A DNA stretch of 32,000 nucleotides from Candidatus Heimdallarchaeota archaeon B3_Heim (lineage in GTDB: Archaea; Asgardarchaeota; Heimdallarchaeia; Hodarchaeales; Hodarchaeaceae): the NCBI GenBank assembly GCA_003144275.1, contig NJBF01000024.1, positions 38,992-70,991 of the forward strand. Direction: 5' to 3'. The translations under genes and the position numbers were made by a program. Shown in pieces: positions 3,930-28,718 of this stretch. The notes under the pieces are model-generated. The model was not told where the DNA came from, made no database searches, and worked only from the letters and a program-made list of their open reading frames with translations. Position 1 is the stretch's first letter. The number at the start of each line of letters is the position of its first letter.

Positions 3930-5165
3930 TTGTTCATGCGTGTGTTACATGTTCAAGGAAAAAAACTAGTTGAAATAAACAAGAAAAATGGATCCTTTGA
4001 ATTCTTGAATGGGGACGTATATATCATTGATAATTCTGATGTCTCCGCAGGCCTCAAGAAAAAGGTGTTCATCTGGTTAGGATCTCAAGCATATGCTGAT
4101 GATAGAGCAGTTGGTGCTTGGGCTGCAAAACAATTGGATCTCGCTGATAAAGAAATAGATATCGACACTGAAGTCGAAGGAAATGAATCAGCTGAGTTTA
4201 AAGGATTATTAGAATTCGTAGTCGTGACAGGAGACACACCTGGCTTTCTAAAGCACGTAGAAGTAAATAAAGAAGACATTAGCTATGCTCTTTACAGAGT
4301 CCGTGATACTGATCTTTCAGATGGTTCATCATCAGATGATATAGCAATTGAAAAAGTACCTTTGAACCGTGAAAGCTTTGTCTCTGATGACGTATTTGTA
4401 TTGGATGCTTTCGATGATCTGTATGTCTGGGTTGGTGCCAGCTCACAGATCGGTGAAAAAGTTGCAGGAAATCGTGTGGCACGGAAATTAGATGTAGATC
4501 GTGATAGAACCCCCATGGTTTACCAAATTAGAGAAGGGTACGAACCAGAGGGTTTTTGGGATCTTTTTAATTCCATAAGCAGCAGTGGTTTAACACGGAA
4601 AGACGATTCATCTGCTATTAGTGCAAGTATGAGTGGTTCTCTTACTGATCTAACTGCTCCAGTAGAACCAGCAACACCTCCTGCTGAATTAGCTCCTCCA
4701 CCTTCTAGTACTTCAACAGGTGAAATTTCAGGTCCACCACGAGAAGAACAATACGTTCCAAAACCTCCTCCAATAAAAGATGAACCTAAACCAAAACCCG
4801 AACCTACACCCCAACCAGTTCAGACTGGTTTCGGAGTAGCGCCCACAGCCCCCGTACCATCTAGAAAGACCCAATATACTTTATATTATGTCGACGGTGA
4901 ATTTACTGAATTAGGGGGAAGTGAATCTGCAACTCTTGAGATCAATGAGTCCACAAAGACAGCTGTTCTTTCATTTGCGGGGGGGTCAAGTTTAATAGCC
5001 CAAAGAACTGCTGGCCGCCAAGCACGAGGTATTTGTAAATCAGGTTTCGCTGTTAAGGCAGGTTACAGAATTGGCATAAAATGTGACCTTCAAGAAGTTC
5101 GTGGGGAAGAGGACATGGAACAGCGAGTTCAAAGATATAGAGAAGAAGGACGCAAATACGTTTAA
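3930..5165 (+). CDS. Two-domain gelsolin-family protein with Ser/Pro-rich linker and uncharacterised C-terminal domain
   Basis: Two gelsolin repeats: FLNGDVYIID...VFIWLGSQA...EVEGNESAEF and FVSDDVFVLD...LYVWVGASS...IREGYEPEGFW. TTG at 3930 or ATG at 3936. Confidence 0.9.
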   Translation: MFMRVLHVQGKKLVEINKKNGSFEFLNGDVYIIDNSDVSAGLKKKVFIWLGSQAYADDRAVGAWAAKQLDLADKEIDIDTEVEGNESAEFKGLLEFVVVTGDTPGFLKHVEVNKEDISYALYRVRDTDLSDGSSSDDIAIEKVPLNRESFVSDDVFVLDAFDDLYVWVGASSQIGEKVAGNRVARKLDVDRDRTPMVYQIREGYEPEGFWDLFNSISSSGLTRKDDSSAISASMSGSLTDLTAPVEPATPPAELAPPPSSTSTGEISGPPREEQYVPKPPPIKDEPKPKPEPTPQPVQTGFGVAPTAPVPSRKTQYTLYYVDGEFTELGGSESATLEINESTKTAVLSFAGGSSLIAQRTAGRQARGICKSGFAVKAGYRIGIKCDLQEVRGEEDMEQRVQRYREEGRKYV

Positions 5166-15639: not shown

Positions 15640-17811
15640 TTACTTCTTTTTCATGGACTGTTTTTTATTCCGAATTTTAATGCCCTGAAAGGCATCAACC
15701 AGCGTTTCATATAGTAATTCAATCAATAGCGGTATTTCTGTCTCAGAGAAACCTAGGGCTCTAGCAATTGCTATATCCAAATTTTCTCTCTTACTTTCAT
15801 ATATTTGGTCTGGAAGGGCCTTTACTTTTTCGGATCTGAGAATATCAAATGCCTCTAAAATATATTTTATGTCATTTGAGGAGCATTGAGAAATATCTAG
15901 GAAGATTTTCTCTCTCATATAATCAATGATTTGTAAACGACCATATGAACCACTAATCTCCCTTCTACTATTAATAAAGAGCAAAAAATAAAACGATGAA
16001 TTCAACCACGCCCCCAAAAATTTAGATTGGTGGTGATTTTTGTCAGTTAAGACGAAAAAATTCTTAGAAGCAGTTTTCTTCTCATCTAAGAAGAGTACAT
16101 TATTAGTTGCACTAGTCAATCCAAATTTATCAACAAAGAACAGATATCCCCAAGGTTTCTTTGTCGTTAATTGATCTTCAAGATGATTTATCCATCTGGT
16201 TTTGAATTTCTTCCTTGCTGGATTCGCGTAATCTTGAGTTTTCCTAATATAAGTTTTCACTGGAGAAGTTAACTGATTTAATGGCTCTGAGACAGAAAGC
16301 GCATAATCTGCAATAGTTGGTGTTATGTACCCTTGATAATTACTCTGTTTACGTAAAGCGCTTACTAGATATTTCTCTGGTAGAATTAATTTTTCTTCTC
16401 TTGATATTAATTCATAACCTTCATTTTTCTTCACAATTTGTGTCCAGATTTTATTTGGTAAGAAAAAGAAACCAGGACCATACATTTCAACCCCCCGTAC
16501 GATCTTTAGATCTAACTCTTCACCAGATCTTATTTTATTAGTTTTTAACAATTTCTGCCTTAGATCTAATATGTTTTCACTGTGAAAGTATCTCATCCAA
16601 TTCCATTCATTAAGCAGGTGTTTGGAATGAATTAATCGCGTAGATGAGATATTTTGTTGATTTTTTATAGAATTTCCGCAAATAAGAGAAAACTTAATCC
16701 CGTAATGATTATCAGATGTTCGTTTAGTAGCAACTAAGATCAGTTCTTTGAAATCACTGCCTTCAGAAAAAGATTTAATCTCATCGGAAGTAAGAATTGA
16801 GTCAATTTCATATTTTGACATCAAATAATTTTGAATACCTTTGGAATAATTTGACAAAAATGTTGATACAGGTAATATTGCACTCAGCGTTCCTCCATGT
16901 TTGAGAATCTGATCTGCTAGAAGAATAGAGTAAATGTGCAGTCCTGGTTGTCCAATTAGATATTTAATGTATTTTTGTATGAGGGGAACTAATACCTTTC
17001 TTTGACTGTCATCAATTCTGTGTGTTCTCGTGAAGGGGGGATTCATTAATACTAAATCAAAATCATTATCAAATGGTAACGAATTACTTCTCAATCTTGT
17101 TGGTAATCTTCTAAAAGCATCACCTATGGTCGCAATAAGTATACTAGGATCCAAATTATGTTTTTGCAATTTGATTAATATTCGAGAATATGCAATTACT
17201 ACGGCAGAAGGAACAAGATCATTAATCCAAATAAGACTCGGAAAATTCATAGACATATTTTTTTCTTCTAAATAGGCCGAAATTAATCTTCCTGATCCAC
17301 AAAACGGATCTATGATTTTGGTAAACGACTTCTCCGTAAGATTTGAACAGATAATTCGTGCGGAGGGTAGTGTAGTATAATTAGCCGCTAATTTTTTCCG
17401 ATAATTTCGTTCTAACGCATTCTGCACAATTGTACCAAAGATGTCACCATTGAGAATAGGTTCAATTTCTAGCGAATGGGGGGTGAAAAGAGAAAGGTCT
17501 TGTTTCAAATCGGCCAGATAACTGAACACTTCTTTCAGAAATTTCCATAACGATATATTTTTTTCATATTTCCTTTCTAAAAATCTTAAACTCTCCATAA
17601 CTGGTTCATAATTATTTATCCTATCATTCTCTTTTATCAGTGATTTTATTATCCATAATCCTAAAGAAATAGAAATGATCAGTTCTTCTTTCGTTGAAAT
17701 CAATTTTGGTAAAGAATCAAATCGCTTTTTATCATCAAAGGATTTAATCCAGTCATTGACATCCCTTTCTAATGAATTTTCAAACAATTCTGGATCTTGA
17801 ATGCATTCCAC
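15640..17811 (-). CDS. N6-adenine DNA methyltransferase (gamma class) with C-terminal target-recognition region; no nuclease domain seen
   Basis: Motif X ANYTT, motif I IIDPFCGSGRL, motif IV LVLMNPPFTR, ILPVSTF; GTG start at 17811. Confidence 0.85.
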   Translation of the reverse strand: MECIQDPELFENSLERDVNDWIKSFDDKKRFDSLPKLISTKEELIISISLGLWIIKSLIKENDRINNYEPVMESLRFLERKYEKNISLWKFLKEVFSYLADLKQDLSLFTPHSLEIEPILNGDIFGTIVQNALERNYRKKLAANYTTLPSARIICSNLTEKSFTKIIDPFCGSGRLISAYLEEKNMSMNFPSLIWINDLVPSAVVIAYSRILIKLQKHNLDPSILIATIGDAFRRLPTRLRSNSLPFDNDFDLVLMNPPFTRTHRIDDSQRKVLVPLIQKYIKYLIGQPGLHIYSILLADQILKHGGTLSAILPVSTFLSNYSKGIQNYLMSKYEIDSILTSDEIKSFSEGSDFKELILVATKRTSDNHYGIKFSLICGNSIKNQQNISSTRLIHSKHLLNEWNWMRYFHSENILDLRQKLLKTNKIRSGEELDLKIVRGVEMYGPGFFFLPNKIWTQIVKKNEGYELISREEKLILPEKYLVSALRKQSNYQGYITPTIADYALSVSEPLNQLTSPVKTYIRKTQDYANPARKKFKTRWINHLEDQLTTKKPWGYLFFVDKFGLTSATNNVLFLDEKKTASKNFFVLTDKNHHQSKFLGAWLNSSFYFLLFINSRREISGSYGRLQIIDYMREKIFLDISQCSSNDIKYILEAFDILRSEKVKALPDQIYESKRENLDIAIARALGFSETEIPLLIELLYETLVDAFQGIKIRNKKQSMKKK

Positions 17812-18049
17812 GCCCTTAGGTCATGGTATATTCCTATATGAAATCCTAATATGAAAGTAAAGAGTGAGGATGATTGATACACCGACTCAATGTATAAAAT
17901 TTAAATTAAATCCTTTTCTTCATAGAAACCTCAGAGAATCGAGAACGATTGGCTATCTCAAGAGAAATTCTGCAAAGTCAAAGTTTATAAATATTTTAAC
18001 TGTTAGATTACTTCGGATGAAATAAATGCAACATAGAGGGATCTACTAA

Positions 18050-19837
18050 ATGCTAAGTCTGAAATCAGCAATTTATATAATCATAGTCAGTATTATATCG
18101 GCTAGCTTAGTCTCCTCATTGGTAGTAATGAATACATTGTCAACTTCCTCACTCCCAACTGAAATTGAGGACAATGCCGAGGATAAGTTACTTATTACAA
18201 CCACAATTCAAGCCCGTCAAATTGCCTCACAATTGGGCAGAACGGAATCTGTTATCAACGCGATGAGTGCTTTTGCAGAGCAAATATGGACTGATACTAC
18301 GATTCCTGACATTCCTAGTTTTTATCATGACGAAAACGTGCTTAATAACCCTCCAACCGATGTTTATTATGATGAGGTTTACGAGCGAAGACTTTCTCAT
18401 CTCTACTCGGGTTATAAGATCGCCCCAACAGCATTTGAGGAATCATATCAAGACAGTTATTTAACAAGTATTCAAGAAACTGAAAATCCTTTATCACACA
18501 TTAACAGTACGGTGATGGCTGCAATCAACCGTTCAGCAAAAATGGACATGGTTTTCCGACAGCTCTATGAGGCTTATCCAGAACATGTTTGGCTCTATAT
18601 GGGGTACGAGTATGGCTTTCATAGATCTTTTCCCTGGCATGGGCCATATTCTCGTACTTATGATCCAAGGACACGTCCTTGGTATATCGGAGCAATTACT
18701 GGAGCGAAAGATGCGGTTATCATCATGGATATAAGCGGAAGCATGCAGGGTACTCCACTTACAAATACCAAAACTGCAATGAAATCCGTACTGAAAACAT
18801 TAGGACCTAAGGATCGATTTACTGTTCTCTCTTTTTCTGCCGATGTAGATGAGTGGGACAATACTTTACAAATCGCTTCTCCTTCAAATATCAATGATGC
18901 CTCTTCTTACATCGATGATCGTAGCTCGGGAGGAAACACAAATATTAATAGCGCACTTCTAGAAGGTCTTGAAATTTTAGAAAAACATGGAACCTCTGAT
19001 CGCACACCCATGCTTATATTCATGACTGATGGTGAAGCGACCTCAGGCATAACAGAATCTGATTTAATATTATCTAACGTCGCTACTGCGAATGTAATGG
19101 GAGCTAGAATGTTTGTTTTTGGATTAGGTACTGAAATTGATCAACAGCTCTTACTAAACCTTGGATCTCAAAATGATGGAGGGACAGTTTTTGTGTTCGA
19201 TTCTGAAGATCTAACAGATGCTATGAACCTTTATTATAAATTTTTTACCTCACAAATTGATAATGCTATTAGTTGGTCATGGCCTTACGTAGATGCGAGT
19301 GGTTGGGGTATAGTAATAACTGCTTCCAAGCCAGTAACAGTTAATGGTACTCTATTAGGAGTCGTTGGAGCAGATTTAACTCTCAATTCACTCATAGACA
19401 CACTTGCAGATTTACAGCCTTCAGATAATGGTTACAACTTCATCTTTGATACAGGTAATATAGCTCTAATCCATCCTAGCTTTACCGATCTACCTATTGG
19501 AGATTGGCAAGAAGAAGAAGTAAGAGTACCTATTTCTACATTGGAAAGTTCCTCAAATAGCTTTATCTCTCTAGTTGATCGTGTTAATCTTGGGATCCCT
19601 ACAGCAGGTACAGTCTATTATGGTACCGAAAAACGTGTTGTGGCAATGGCTCCAATTGGAGAAACTTCCATGCACTTAGCTTCTGTAGCCCCAATCTTAG
19701 AATTTCTTGATCCAACAACCATTACTGCATTAAAAGGAGTTAGCACCTTCGCTCTGCTTTGGCTTGGAGGCAGTATTTCTGTAGGTACAATAGCTGCACT
19801 AGTATTAGTGATAAAATTCAAGGAGGACTTTCATTGA
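18050..19837 (+). CDS. Membrane-anchored dCache_1 protein with inserted VWA domain (alpha2delta/CACHD1-like)
   Basis: N- and C-terminal TM helices; YDPRTRPWY (18659-18685) followed by KDAVIIMDISGS (MIDAS DxSxS 18728-18742), GGNTN, IFMTDG; Cache resumes at WSWPYVDASG...GVVGAD, then NGYNFIFD...LIHP. Confidence 0.9.
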   Translation: MLSLKSAIYIIIVSIISASLVSSLVVMNTLSTSSLPTEIEDNAEDKLLITTTIQARQIASQLGRTESVINAMSAFAEQIWTDTTIPDIPSFYHDENVLNNPPTDVYYDEVYERRLSHLYSGYKIAPTAFEESYQDSYLTSIQETENPLSHINSTVMAAINRSAKMDMVFRQLYEAYPEHVWLYMGYEYGFHRSFPWHGPYSRTYDPRTRPWYIGAITGAKDAVIIMDISGSMQGTPLTNTKTAMKSVLKTLGPKDRFTVLSFSADVDEWDNTLQIASPSNINDASSYIDDRSSGGNTNINSALLEGLEILEKHGTSDRTPMLIFMTDGEATSGITESDLILSNVATANVMGARMFVFGLGTEIDQQLLLNLGSQNDGGTVFVFDSEDLTDAMNLYYKFFTSQIDNAISWSWPYVDASGWGIVITASKPVTVNGTLLGVVGADLTLNSLIDTLADLQPSDNGYNFIFDTGNIALIHPSFTDLPIGDWQEEEVRVPISTLESSSNSFISLVDRVNLGIPTAGTVYYGTEKRVVAMAPIGETSMHLASVAPILEFLDPTTITALKGVSTFALLWLGGSISVGTIAALVLVIKFKEDFH

Positions 19838-21093: not shown

Positions 21094-21284
21094 AAGATGG
21101 ATTTAAGAAATAAGATCAGAATTACTAGTACTGAAGAGTGAAGTTACATCGTAGAGTTAGATATGAGAAACCGCTCTCATTAAACAGAATCTTATGGTTA
21201 GAAACTGAATCTAATTCAAAAAAACTTCCAAAATTGATCACATCCCAAATCAAAATTCCATAAAGGGAATTGGGTTGTTCAGGA

Positions 21285-22754
21285 ATGGCAAAGAAGTATT
21301 ATTGTGGCCTTTGCGAGACCAGTCATAATGCCCTAAAATCAAGACATCAGTGTAACCAATGTGCTCGTTTCTACTGTGATTCAGCACTAGAGGATGCACG
21401 AACAGTTGGTGTTACAACCTGCGTTTTTTGCGAAGGAAAATTATCTCCATTTTTTCTTACAACGAGCTTACAATATCTTGCGGAAGATAAAAGAGTAGTG
21501 GATTCTGAGGGGAATAGTGAGGATACAACAAGTTATTCAGAATTCAGTTTAACTCAAGAAAATCTGGAAATTTCTTCTGAATCGGCCACATTTCCTTCAT
21601 ATAATATTGAGATTGATCAAAGGGATTTGGAAATAATCTGGCTGCTGCAAGAAATAGTTGCCAAAGAGATTCCTTTAATAGAAAATGAAGATCTCATCCA
21701 AACAAATTCTGGATTCATTGTCAAAAATCAGCGTATCGTTGGTTTAAGCCTTTTCAAACTAGAGATAAGGCGAGTTCCTGTTGAGATTGGAGAATTAACA
21801 GAGTTAGAAAGGTTATTTTTACGAGAGAACAGAATTGATAAATTACCTGACTTGAGTAGTCTAAAGATCTTGCAAGAACTAGATCTAAGCTATAATCAAT
21901 TAAGAGAATTACCTGCTACTCTGGGTGATATCCCCTCCCTTACTACTCTGATTTTGAACAATAACCGACTAAAGAAAATTCCTATTTCTCTCACTAGCCT
22001 ACAACTGAAGAAATTAAATTTGCAGGATAATCCTTGTTGGAATCATCAGCCTCGTAGTCGAAAATTGCAGCGTTGGATAGATAATTTAGTAAGTAATGGT
22101 TGTGAAGTATTCGATACTCCTAGAGATGGTGAATACCTAAATATTGTCTTATCCCCAAGTGAAGTGGAATTCTTAGAAGAGATAGAACGATTAATTGATA
22201 AACAAATAACGCATTCAGAAACAGCTGTCAATATATTAAATTTAGAACAATTAAAGAATTTTAAATTTGGATTTTGTTCTTCGTTCGAGAGAATTAAAGC
22301 TTTAGGATTAGGAAACCTAGGCCTTTCAACTTTACCACGTTCCATTCAGGGTTTAAATGCTATTGAAATGATAAATTTATCTCAAAATCGTTTTAGTCAA
22401 CTTCCACTAGAATTATTTACCTTGGTGTCCTTACAAGGACTCAATTTAGAAGATAATATACTCGATACACTTGATAGCGGGATTAGAAGTTTAACAGAAT
22501 TAAAAATATTAGATCTACAAACGAATAATCTTAAACGAGTACCCAAATCGTTAGGAAATTTAAGAAAACTTGAAATTCTTATCTTGAAAGACAATGATCT
22601 TATATCACTTCCTTCTTCCCTTAAAGATCTTCAAAACCTCAAAATGATCGATCTTCGTGGGAATCCTATATGGAATGAACGAGAAGATCGGCGTGAATTA
22701 CAAAAATGGATTCGTGACTTAAAAAAACGACATTGTGAAATTGTAGGTTTATGA
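21285..22754 (+). CDS. Cys-rich Zn-finger plus two capped leucine-rich-repeat modules
   Basis: CGLC...HQCNQC...FYC...CVFC at the N-terminus; LxxLxLxxNxL repeats (LERLFLRENRI, LQELDLSYNQL, LKILDLQTNNL); ATG at 21285 preferred over TTG at 21270. Confidence 0.85.
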   Translation: MAKKYYCGLCETSHNALKSRHQCNQCARFYCDSALEDARTVGVTTCVFCEGKLSPFFLTTSLQYLAEDKRVVDSEGNSEDTTSYSEFSLTQENLEISSESATFPSYNIEIDQRDLEIIWLLQEIVAKEIPLIENEDLIQTNSGFIVKNQRIVGLSLFKLEIRRVPVEIGELTELERLFLRENRIDKLPDLSSLKILQELDLSYNQLRELPATLGDIPSLTTLILNNNRLKKIPISLTSLQLKKLNLQDNPCWNHQPRSRKLQRWIDNLVSNGCEVFDTPRDGEYLNIVLSPSEVEFLEEIERLIDKQITHSETAVNILNLEQLKNFKFGFCSSFERIKALGLGNLGLSTLPRSIQGLNAIEMINLSQNRFSQLPLELFTLVSLQGLNLEDNILDTLDSGIRSLTELKILDLQTNNLKRVPKSLGNLRKLEILILKDNDLISLPSSLKDLQNLKMIDLRGNPIWNEREDRRELQKWIRDLKKRHCEIVGL

Positions 22755-25287: not shown

Positions 25288-25491
25288 TCAACGCGTAATA
25301 TATATATGAAAATAATCTCATTTACCAACCTCCAAAGTGAATGTGTTCTTAGACTAACAAATTTTGGTCTTCTGATCCTTTTTAAATAAGCCAAAGTATT
25401 ATAAACCTTTAGATTGAATTTAGAGATTAAATTAATCCTTTAAGAATTCTAAAGTTGATCCTATACCATTCCTAAGGTGGTTTTATTAACA

Positions 25492-26199
25492 ATGAAAGCG
25501 ATGATATTAAGAATTGGAATTGATAAAGGAACGGATGGTACTCTAGCGCCTATATTCAATGACAGAAGTTATGAATATATTCCAATGTCAGAACGAGATA
25601 ATAAATCAACAGAGCCAAGGAAGTATTCCAATACCAAAGGTAGATCAGGAAAGCTATTATCATACTATTTACCAAAAAGAGTAAAGGATCGCACAATTCA
25701 TTTCGATCCAGAATTCGAAACCATGACTTATGGAGATCCAACAATAAAGAGGAAGTATTTATTACGCCTTGCAAAAGATGATTTACTAGTATTTTATGCT
25801 GGTTTAACCCCTTTTAGGACTAAAAGATTTAAAGAAGGATTATTTATAATTGGATATTTTCTTGTTTCAGAAGTAGTAGAATTCAAAGTTCTCACAATGG
25901 AGGAAATAAAATCAACATACAATAGATTACATAATAATGCCCACGCGAAACGAAGCTACCATGCATCTGAGTTAGTTATCGTGACTGGAAGCTCAAGTAG
26001 TAGACTACTTGAAAGAGCAATTCCAATAAGCTCTACTAAAATGAATTCTATAGGTAGAAAATATCATGTTGTTTCACCAAAGATAGAAAAGCTCTTAGGA
26101 ATTAAAGGATCCATCCAACGAAGTATTCCTCCCCGTTTTATATACGATATAAAGAATATATCAAACCTAAGAACAATACTAAGTGAATCCCAATTATAG
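25492..26199 (+). CDS. Nmad3-like (nucleotide-modification-associated domain 3) protein
   Basis: ILRIGID, YEYIPMSE, IHFDPEFETMTYGDP, LAKDDLLVFYAGL, IIGYFLV, NNAHAK match the remembered Nmad3 consensus; ATG at 25492. Confidence 0.65.
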   Translation: MKAMILRIGIDKGTDGTLAPIFNDRSYEYIPMSERDNKSTEPRKYSNTKGRSGKLLSYYLPKRVKDRTIHFDPEFETMTYGDPTIKRKYLLRLAKDDLLVFYAGLTPFRTKRFKEGLFIIGYFLVSEVVEFKVLTMEEIKSTYNRLHNNAHAKRSYHASELVIVTGSSSSRLLERAIPISSTKMNSIGRKYHVVSPKIEKLLGIKGSIQRSIPPRFIYDIKNISNLRTILSESQL

Positions 26200-27599: not shown

Positions 27600-28718
27600 T
27601 TGAAGGTGGTTCATTTGAATAAACTGTTCATTAATACTAAAATAAATAGAACACTAAAAGTAATCTATTTCTTGGTTCTTGTAACTCTAATATTTCTGGA
27701 TATTTTGGTTGTTTTCTTTTTACCACAAGTTGGTCTAGGGGCTCTTGTAGCGTATAGTGCGTGTGTTGAAGGTAATCATGCTTTTGTTACAACTAACGAC
27801 GGAACAGTGATTCTAGATATCAGTAACCCTGTAAATCCTAGAAAAATTGGGATTGTAGCTACTAGTGACGGTGCATTTGGTGTAACAGTAAAGGACGACC
27901 TCGCATATATTGCAAGCGATAGTAATGGTTTTATTATTGCTAATATAAGTGATCCAGAGAATCCTTTGATCACAGATCAATATAATGATGGCGGAAGTGC
28001 CCATTCAGTATGTACTAATGGTTCTTATGCGTATGTAACTGAATATCCTCAAGGTATGGAAATATTTGATATTTCTACCCCTGATGATATTATTAAAGTC
28101 ACAGAATACGATGATGGAGGAGTATTTCGTGGTGTCGCGATAAAGAATAACTTCATCTACCTTCCAGATTCAGGTAGGGGCCTTAAAGTACTTAATGTAA
28201 CAGATCCATCCTCGCCTAAATTAGTATCGACTTCTCTATTAACACATGGCGCGATTGATGTTTATATTCATAATGATTTGCTTTTCTTAGGATGTCATGG
28301 ACATGGAGTCTATATTTTTGATATTTCCACTCCCCATTCACCTATTCAGCTTGGAAAATATTATAAACTTGGAGGGGAAGCTTATGGTGTTACTGGAAAC
28401 ACTACTCATCTTTACGTTGCTGATTTACAAAAAGGAGTATATATCCTAAATATCACAGACCCCTCGCACCCAAAAGAAATTTCAGAATATAGTAATGCAG
28501 CTCCACACGATATTTTTTGGAATGATAAGAAAATTTTTCTTGCAGATCAAGACAAGCGATTGATCATCCTTGATGAACATTTAGAACCCTTATTTACTGG
28601 TTTTCAGCGTGATATAAGTCTACAGTTATTTTTAATTGCAGTTACTCTTGTTGTTGGATCAATTCTTCCTATCTATTGGTTCAGAAAATTTCTCCAATTA
28701 GGTCAAAAGGAATCATAA
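27600..28718 (+). CDS. LVIVD-repeat beta-propeller protein anchored by N- and C-terminal TM helices
   Basis: Repeats such as GTVILDISNPVNP, GFIIANISDPENP, GMEIFDISTPDD, GLKVLNVTDPSSP, GVYIFDISTPHSP, GVYILNITDPSHP. Confidence 0.85.
   Translation: MKVVHLNKLFINTKINRTLKVIYFLVLVTLIFLDILVVFFLPQVGLGALVAYSACVEGNHAFVTTNDGTVILDISNPVNPRKIGIVATSDGAFGVTVKDDLAYIASDSNGFIIANISDPENPLITDQYNDGGSAHSVCTNGSYAYVTEYPQGMEIFDISTPDDIIKVTEYDDGGVFRGVAIKNNFIYLPDSGRGLKVLNVTDPSSPKLVSTSLLTHGAIDVYIHNDLLFLGCHGHGVYIFDISTPHSPIQLGKYYKLGGEAYGVTGNTTHLYVADLQKGVYILNITDPSHPKEISEYSNAAPHDIFWNDKKIFLADQDKRLIILDEHLEPLFTGFQRDISLQLFLIAVTLVVGSILPIYWFRKFLQLGQKES

Follow-up and report, generated by a model that had tools for sequence, protein, structure and literature searches.

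A two-gene archaeal member of the alpha2delta/CACHD1-type family in a Heimdall-group Asgard archaeon

The window analyzed here is a 32,000-nucleotide stretch of contig NJBF01000024.1 (positions 38,992 to 70,991, forward strand) from Candidatus Heimdallarchaeota archaeon B3_Heim. It carries a gene, hereafter gene A, whose product truly belongs, as an archaeal representative, to the alpha2delta/CACHD1-type module family; its form is new, with two subunits and no output domain. The gene A protein is a whole-module homolog of the alpha2delta/CACHD1 unit in which a dCache_1 domain is split by a VWA domain, and its VWA enters dCache_1 at the same point as in those proteins, by sequence as well as by fold. 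Alpha2delta subunits are major drug targets (gabapentin, pregabalin and mirogabalin), CACHD1 is a Wnt co-receptor and channel modulator, and the Heimdall-group Asgard archaea are the proposed closest relatives of eukaryotes. A chimeric module hitherto reported from eukaryotes only is present in this archaeal group, with the same junction and a sister-group VWA; its origin must therefore be either archaeal and earlier than the last ancestor common to all eukaryotes (LECA), or an ancient exchange between domains of life.

Every eukaryotic dCache_1 has a VWA insertion (PMC8915833). In the only published evolutionary account that we found, Gumerov et al. (2022, PMC8915833) dated this insertion, together with the transfer of dCache_1 from bacteria, to about LECA, and mentioned no prokaryotic copy. 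In a review from the Dolphin group, alpha2delta and Cachd1 are the sole animal carriers. The original prediction, which had been made from the letters of the window, left it to the literature whether Asgard copies were already reported; in open-access papers and preprints, our searches turned up no description of a VWA-in-dCache protein from an Asgard archaeon or any other prokaryote.

Gene A encodes a dCache_1 domain split by a VWA domain

Gene A is a real open reading frame, and all strings that the original prediction had quoted from it are present. The encoded protein consists, in this order, of a membrane helix, a dCache_1 domain with a VWA inside its distal module, a second membrane helix and a short tail (Table 1). 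Sequence, model and alignment agree on a cytoplasmic tail of about 8 residues and on the absence of an output domain. The same holds for all 16 aligned homologs, each of which has a membrane helix at either end, a cytoplasmic tail of less than about 10 residues and no output domain.

Pfam VWA (PF00092) matched residues 221-388 with 67.7 bits, above its gathering cut-off of 23.8 bits. The C-terminal half of Pfam dCache_1 matched residues 399-545, and a weak VWA_N match at residues 153-195 covered the N-terminal dCache_1 half; VWA_N is known to be the N-terminal half of a dCache_1 split by a VWA (Gumerov et al. 2022, PMC8915833). Both half-matches lie under the gathering score because the domain is split. 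Residues 36-216 end in the first half of the amino-acid motif (Y204-x4-R209-x-W211-Y212) and align to residues 1-223 of a VWA-less paralog encoded by the next gene, hereafter gene B. Beyond the VWA, Y413 and D442 complete the dCache_1AA motif (Y-x4-R-x-W-Y...Y...D) in the distal module, with 28 residues between them against a published range of 27-34 (PMC8915833).

As originally predicted, both the amino-acid motif and the metal ion-dependent adhesion site (MIDAS) of the VWA are intact. Neither the six motif residues (Y204, R209, W211, Y212, Y413 and D442) nor the five MIDAS residues (D227, S229, S231, T297 and D327) vary in 16 Asgard homologs; the former align with alpha2delta-1 and PctA, and the latter with the MIDAS segments of ITIH1. 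We built an AlphaFold2 model on the alignment of these homologs (predicted local distance difference test (pLDDT) score 82.6; predicted template modeling score 0.72). Together with VIA structure comparison and Pfam, it shows the dCache_1 fold, a long stalk helix followed by distal and proximal PAS-like modules. The VWA of the model superimposed on that of ITIH1 with a VIA Z of 26.1 and a root-mean-square deviation of 1.9 Å.

The insertion point is that of alpha2delta-1 and CACHD1

In a phmmer search of PDB sequences, residues 176-533 of alpha2delta-1 aligned to residues 152-484 of gene A in a single unbroken stretch (E ~7e-18), and CACHD1 matched with an E of 8e-21. The Foldseek comparison that had been proposed along with the original prediction returned alpha2delta-1 or CACHD1 chains at ranks 1-14 (E 1.2e-27 to 1e-16, ~560-630 columns), and the lower ranks were VWA-only. 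With the phmmer match to alpha2delta-1 at ~7e-18 and the best Foldseek match at 1.2e-27, chance is excluded. VIA aligned 465-490 residues of the model (42-556) with residues ~72-632 of alpha2delta-1 at Z 24-25 (model residues 5-556 at Z 24.9 over 490 residues), and the whole chain of CACHD1 at Z 23. Full-length fold matches in the ESM Atlas were eukaryotic alpha2delta-like clusters only.

When the N-terminal junction was used as a query, alpha2delta-1 was the top match, with zero gap from the WY of the motif to the DxSGS of the MIDAS. The alignment reproduced the human alpha2delta-1 string that the original prediction had given across this junction, without a gap and with identical spacing. 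This WY-to-DxSGS spacing is equal in archaeal, planctomycete, human and crinoid alpha2delta-like proteins, and three aligned protist proteins come within one residue of it. For the half that follows the VWA, the best PDB match was CACHD1 (E 2e-9), and 71 residues aligned without a gap to the Pseudomonas amino-acid chemoreceptor PctA (E 5e-10). The bounds of the insert, ~217-404, were set by the two blocks in which the VWA-less paralog B aligns with gene A. The junctions, the paralog and the colinear structure alignment all place the entry site between the WY helix and the strand that carries the motif Tyr, with the motif split between its two sides. Hence the VWA position claimed at the outset, that of alpha2delta and CACHD1, stood up in the sequence junctions and in the Foldseek and VIA comparisons alike.

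In alpha2delta-1, 13 residues line the gabapentin/L-Leu pocket (bioRxiv 10.1101/2022.12.05.519047). Seven of the 13 were mapped onto gene A through the junction alignment. Five of these, all in the N-terminal half of the domain, are identical (W181, W196, Y204, R209 and W211), and the other two, Val209 and Tyr219 of alpha2delta-1, correspond to Y183 and S193.

Similarities and differences among the related systems were then compared. Alpha2delta-1 (CACNA2D1) resembles gene A in fold, domain order, VWA entry point and junction spacing, and the MIDAS of gene A is perfect, whereas overall identity is only ~20% and the C-terminus of gene A is a membrane helix. In alpha2delta proper, one chain holds two dCache_1 domains, the first nested within the second, whereas gene A has a single one and the second comes from the separate gene B. 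Moreover, alpha2delta proper partners a four-domain voltage-gated calcium channel, whereas no Ion_trans (PF00520) channel above the Pfam cut-off was found in the 94%-complete genome (best 20.2 bits against 25), a result that is not proof of absence. A role as a calcium-channel accessory is not supported here, since no Ion_trans protein above the cut-off occurs in the genome. Gene A therefore falls short of a full alpha2delta subunit on two counts, the number of dCache_1 domains and the channel.

CACHD1 contains the same module and, like the archaeal protein, a C-terminal transmembrane helix. It has two dCache_1 domains with an intact motif in the second (PMC8915833), whereas the archaeal motif lies in the VWA-bearing domain and is accompanied by a complete MIDAS. 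PctA-type dCache_1AA receptors share with gene A the distal pocket, the Y-x4-R-x-W-Y...Y...D motif and the PYVDA and GVVG-D segments, but they have no VWA insert, possess a cytoplasmic HAMP/MCP output and fall outside the alpha2delta-like dCache group in the tree. The best non-archaeal matches (E 1e-53 to 1e-30, 32-39% identity) were eukaryotic proteins with a single VWA-bearing dCache_1, which are found in protists and invertebrates (PMC8915833). Compared with these, the archaeal protein has helices at both ends, a proximal module and an operon with a VWA-less paralog, whereas the eukaryotic Arcella-type proteins P0116 and P0105 have a Cys-rich region instead of the proximal module. In trees, the archaeal proteins form a clade apart from the eukaryotic single-dCache_1 proteins.

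Gene A is coupled to a VWA-less paralog

Genes A and B are translationally coupled (Table 1). The length and N-terminus that we assigned to the gene B protein agree with those of orthologs that start at an ATGA overlap. Gene B is 35% and 26% identical to the two halves of gene A, matches Pfam dCache_1 with an E of 6e-16, and has the two-helix topology and the amino-acid motif of A without the VWA. A VWA-less dCache reading frame adjoins the VWA-dCache gene in nearly all loci examined, including those of distant families and of a planctomycete; in two divergent loci, the partner gave only a weak Pfam match.

Two natural fusions join the A and B parts in one chain. P0016 (993 aa, ENA metagenome) is an A-B fusion with the order VWA-dCache, dCache, membrane helix and zinc ribbon. 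P0026 (863 aa, Logan) consists of an A-like half minus the VWA, two membrane helices and a B-like half. Its VWA-less A-like half nests within the A clade in the tree, and clean loss of the VWA therefore does occur.

The A and B ectodomains were also submitted to complex prediction. The median ipSAE was 0.70 (best control 0.00), a mark reached by 58 of 80 solved complexes and by 2 of 110 mismatched pairs. The runs had at least 79% of contacts in common, with a partner pLDDT of at least 83, and placed the interface along the stalk helices, at residues 46-86 and 167-176 of A and residues 40-69 and 152-164 of B. This prediction of a heterodimer supports binding of A to B, with the proviso that it may reflect likeness to solved dCache dimers or to alpha2delta.

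The family is confined to some Heimdall-group archaea and one planctomycete genome

Close homologs (44-92% identity) are labeled Hodarchaeales, Kariarchaeaceae, Hodarchaeota, Heimdallarchaeota, Thorarchaeota or Promethearchaeota, in support of an Asgard archaeon as the source of the window. Their annotations read merely "VWA domain-containing protein" or "YegL". We scanned 1.84 billion representatives exhaustively with phmmer, and the matches fell into three tiers: full-length proteins of ~600 aa with 26-61% identity; the same module in proteins of ~540-650 and 1000-1400 aa with 32-39% identity (E 1e-53 to 1e-30); and VWA-only matches. Second-tier proteins of known provenance were all eukaryotic (Salpingoeca, Pharyngomonas, Arcella, a Tim17/C2-kinase contig and a transcript-like contig). 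The proteins next nearest to the archaeal family and its planctomycete member are eukaryotic alpha2delta-like proteins.

Within a set of 400 Asgard genomes, 4 of the 21 species in the genus had full-length copies, as did 1 of 3 genomes and 7 of 12 genomes from two other families of the same class; the other Asgard classes in this set gave VWA-only matches and no full-length copy. Outside the archaea, a single Planctomycetota metagenome-assembled genome (MAG) has the A-B cassette, at 46% identity, and its flanks are bacterial, with genes for a PEP-CTERM protein and for a T2SSE ATPase. This copy nests inside the Asgard clade, at 100/98 in the starred 10-row set of the tree. We considered Planctomycetota as a reservoir of the family and rejected this idea, as 400 further genomes of the phylum gave VWA-only matches.

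A search of 185,579 species genomes with the back-translated junction signature found four loci, in three Heimdall/Hod MAGs and in that planctomycete, and none with a 15-residue spacing. The original prediction had named nesting in a bacterial Cache-VWA family as one outcome that would contradict it. No such nesting appeared; among these species representatives, one bacterial genome has the signature.

Trees support a single insertion event

A tree of the dCache parts by themselves, built by the careful method with the VWA cut out, contained five solid clans: A, the archaeal VWA-bearing proteins (support 100/97); B, the archaeal partners (99/97); U, archaeal dCache-HAMP-TPR-VWA sensors (92/86); C, the eukaryotic first dCache (98/90); and D, the eukaryotic second dCache (100/99). 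Approximately unbiased tests did not reject a grouping of A with C (p 0.43), and neither supported nor rejected one of B with D (p 0.41). In cross-profile scores, A, B and U were mutually closest, B and PctA ranked behind A and U in closeness to C, and C was the clan nearest to D.

In a VWA tree that included ITIH/VIT-type and distant VWAs, the archaeal and eukaryotic inserted VWAs formed one clade at 95/90, within which C was monophyletic at 100/100 and A at 59/32. The same clade received 46/86 in a noisier rooted set with long-branch outgroups and 95/90 after cleaning, a bootstrap value that is not fully settled. Because the inserted VWAs are sisters and the junction is identical, these results support a single insertion event as the common source of the module in archaea and in eukaryotes.

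The archaeal and eukaryotic groups are reciprocally monophyletic, and with weak deep branches the direction of descent is therefore not polarised. The claim of a prokaryotic precursor consequently divides in two: whole-module homology and a shared insertion stand, whereas the status of precursor does not follow. Likewise, of the separate dCache_1 and VWA phylogenies suggested at the outset, the latter gave the sister grouping at 95/90, and the former has a deep backbone with support of just 52-56.

Clan U comprises the nearest VWA-less dCache_1 relatives by cross-profile scores and tree, with Hodarchaeota and Thermoplasmata labels. These are conventional sensors with HAMP output, and their VWA is C-terminal, cytoplasmic and unrelated to the inserted one. 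Examples are P0110, P0133, P0161 and P0166 (867-944 aa), of which P0133 is labeled Hodarchaeota. Their C-terminal VWA was considered as a donor of the insert and rejected, since it falls far outside the inserted VWAs in the VWA tree. A region search with P0102 for the prokaryotic dCache nearest to the eukaryotic module brought back only close eukaryotic relatives; the argument for an archaeal rather than a bacterial source hence rests on archaeal-seeded searches.

Origin of the module

On balance, we lean towards an archaeal ancestry of the module over a transfer from a eukaryote to an archaeon, because archaea supply its nearest VWA-less relatives, the archaeal clade goes deep and is restricted to the class held closest to eukaryotes, and an operon of two membrane proteins fuses more easily than a fused gene splits. 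The transfer scenario, which we regard as rather unlikely, would have the module arise in stem eukaryotes, pass in ancient times to a Heimdall-group archaeon, spread patchily and then reach one planctomycete, the archaeal protein being a descendant. It is kept alive by the patchy archaeal distribution described above together with the mobility that the planctomycete copy demonstrates; it also accommodates the occurrence of the module in all eukaryotic supergroups (PMC8915833), and reciprocal monophyly leaves the direction unpolarised. However, the archaeal subclades are 26-31% identical to one another, as deep as their distance to eukaryotes (32-39%), and the archaeal clade nests in no eukaryotic subgroup. 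Furthermore, it is in archaea that dCache relatives without a VWA come closest to the whole group, namely as B paralogs and as dCache-HAMP sensors labeled Hodarchaeota and Thermoplasmata, and derivation of two coupled cistrons, each with its own membrane helices, from a fused eukaryotic gene would call for fission and gain of helices.

Cache domains are thought to be bacterial, and Gumerov et al. (PMC8915833) proposed such an origin for the eukaryotic dCache_1, which raises the question of whether Asgard archaea and eukaryotes each acquired the family, or its dCache part, from bacteria. The full A-B cassette between bacterial flanks in the Planctomycetota MAG would agree with this, as would a Tex-like gene, of a kind commoner in bacteria, on the contig of the divergent member P0090. 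Nevertheless, a bacterial origin is improbable: the planctomycete copy lies inside the Asgard clade, the 400 other genomes of its phylum are VWA-only, three of the four loci with the junction signature are archaeal, and the ESM Atlas holds no large bacterial cluster with the full fold. More improbable still is convergence, that is, independent insertion of a VWA into the same loop in archaea and in eukaryotes. The best dCache-only tree does place clan A with the archaeal VWA-less clans and not with the eukaryotic first dCache, though weakly (56/90). By contrast, the junction spacing is identical, each junction has conserved sequence to either side, the inserted VWAs group as sisters, and a joint dCache clade was not rejected; in addition, VWA loss within the A clade, directly visible in P0026 (first half), accounts for relatives that lack the VWA with no need of another insertion.

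A bolder form of the archaeal reading, in which the alpha2delta/CACHD1 module is an Asgard-derived eukaryotic signature protein, a dCache_1 sensor received the VWA in the archaeal line that led to eukaryotes, the A-B operon represents the state of two dCache domains before fusion and P0016 is an intermediate, is doubtful. The gene order, A before B, is colinear with the eukaryotic proteins that have two dCache domains; in cross-profile scores, B showed no affinity for the eukaryotic second dCache, which is closest to the eukaryotic first dCache. If this bolder form were true, the gabapentinoid pocket and the MIDAS site would predate both LECA and calcium channels, and the module would first have served an archaeal surface sensing or contact system.

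A proposed two-subunit receptor

We put the probability at roughly 70% that gene A encodes the VWA subunit of a two-subunit extracytoplasmic receptor anchored in the membrane, which would combine a pocket that keeps the universal amino-acid motif with a MIDAS-competent VWA and depend on an external read-out. Its distal pocket may bind a free alpha-amino acid or a close analog, with Y204, R209 and W211 holding the carboxylate and Y413 and D442 the amine. The VWA, through a divalent cation bound at the MIDAS, may grip an acidic side chain, either on a partner protein or on a surface ligand. We infer binding of amino acids, gabapentinoids or metal from conserved residues only. A would pair with the co-translated, VWA-less B through the stalk helices. 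The A-B complex would then act as an accessory or co-receptor unit whose signal is read by another protein, given that neither subunit has an output domain. Candidates for the read-out are the neighboring zinc-finger/leucine-rich repeat (LRR) protein, the zinc-ribbon tails that B orthologs carry, or a receptor Ser/Thr kinase like that of the planctomycete operon. A receptor of this kind would offer a small two-gene prokaryotic version of the ligand and MIDAS unit of alpha2delta, which could show how the pocket is coupled to the VWA, and it suggests a class of Cache receptors that lack an output of their own and have to act via partner proteins.

The protein might instead be mainly a metal-dependent adhesin or surface scaffold without signaling, serving contacts between cells or of cells with a substrate, its dCache pocket being structural or serving a ligand other than an amino acid. 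Such a role would fit the lack of a cytoplasmic output domain on A and B, as well as the MIDAS residues, which are invariant even in a divergent subclade with a decayed amino-acid motif; eukaryotic alpha2delta and CACHD1, too, bind other membrane proteins instead of signaling themselves (CACHD1-FZD5-LRP6 entries). We nonetheless consider it unlikely, since invariance of the six motif residues in the 16 closer homologs argues for selection on the pocket, and since the zinc-ribbon tails, the LRR/zinc-finger neighbor and the receptor kinase neighbor point to a cytoplasmic read-out.

Several observations weigh against the two-subunit receptor and the family history that goes with it. Ligand sensing may be limited to part of the family, for the divergent Asgard subclade has a degenerate amino-acid motif and half of the B orthologs have Phe in place of the motif Tyr. 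The complex model does not discriminate between an A-B heterodimer and homodimers of A or of B, and no single output partner is kept across all loci. The family is patchy, as just 4 of the 21 species in the genus have it and, within one class, only some of the families do; the bacterial copy means that the module moves horizontally; and the deep backbone of the dCache tree is poorly supported.

Candidate read-out partners and genomic neighborhood

The gene downstream of the A-B pair encodes a protein with an N-terminal Cys-rich zinc-finger region followed by two leucine-rich-repeat blocks. It keeps this position in three sister species (96%, 58% and 50% identity), and from this neighborhood alone a functional link with A-B is possible. 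Several B orthologs and the fusion P0016 carry a cytoplasmic zinc ribbon, and it is conceivable that a zinc-finger adaptor is linked with these tails. In the planctomycete operon, a third gene overlaps the end of the dCache paralog and encodes a receptor Ser/Thr kinase (JAJDCR010000069.1, 7026-9110), whose kinase domain spans residues 13-269. The protein also has a single membrane helix, and each of its three extracellular repeats opens with a YEPNN-like motif. This kinase is a candidate output of the transferred cassette. In divergent Asgard-like loci, an extra gene of 400-710 aa without a Pfam match immediately precedes the VWA-dCache gene and overlaps it by 4 nt; this arrangement suggests that the divergent subclade has a different third component.

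The host genome comprises 3.9 Mb (94% complete), and the window lies on a 71-kb contig. The TATA-like box was read from the sequence ~57-66 nt before the ATG of gene A, inside a 238-nt gap next to a divergent gene. For the locus, no RNA run was listed; the runs were of marine-sediment and cold-seep DNA only, with a best word share of 0.34.

Table 1. Features of gene A, gene B and their surroundings in the 32,000-nt window
Feature	Position	Strand	Basis
TATA-like A/T-rich box, putative archaeal promoter, 5' of gene A	17984-17993	+	letters only
Putative purine-rich ribosome-binding-like site, gene A	18035-18040	+	GAGGG ~9 nt before ATG 18050
Gene A (P0001), VWA-in-dCache_1 membrane protein	18050-19837	+	open reading frame, 595 aa, ATG start
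N-terminal membrane helix of gene A, ~residues 5-27	18062-18130	+	hydrophobic stretch; model helix 4-32; all homologs
Stalk helix plus N-terminal portion of the distal dCache_1 module, residues 36-216	18155-18697	+	alpha2delta-1 alignment, invariant columns
Inserted VWA, residues 217-404, MIDAS D227, S229, S231, T297, D327	18698-19261	+	Pfam VWA, E 1.9e-18
Remaining distal module (Y413, D415, D442) and membrane-proximal module, residues 405-556	19262-19717	+	PctA and CACHD1 alignments, Pfam
C-terminal membrane helix of gene A, ~residues 563-588	19736-19813	+	sequence, model, alignment
AGGAGG ribosome-binding site of gene B, inside the end of gene A	19821-19826	+	7 nt before TTG 19834
Gene B, VWA-less dCache_1 paralog, 419 aa	19834-21093	+	TTG start overlaps gene A TGA (TTGA)
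Cys-rich zinc-finger and LRR protein, possible cytoplasmic adaptor	21270-22754	+	Pfam LRR_8, LRR_14
Gelsolin-repeat protein	3930-5165	+	Pfam Gelsolin, E 1e-24
723-aa protein with Eco57I-type methylase domain, divergent from gene A	15640-17811	-	not kept beside genes A and B in sister species
Nmad3 (nucleotide modification associated) domain protein	25477-26199	+	side observation
LVIVD-repeat protein	27600-28718	+	side observation

The remaining neighbors are typical of an Asgard chromosome and include CDC48, PAC2, a DRG-type GTPase, seryl-tRNA synthetase and the gelsolin-repeat protein, which is a typical Asgard eukaryotic signature protein.

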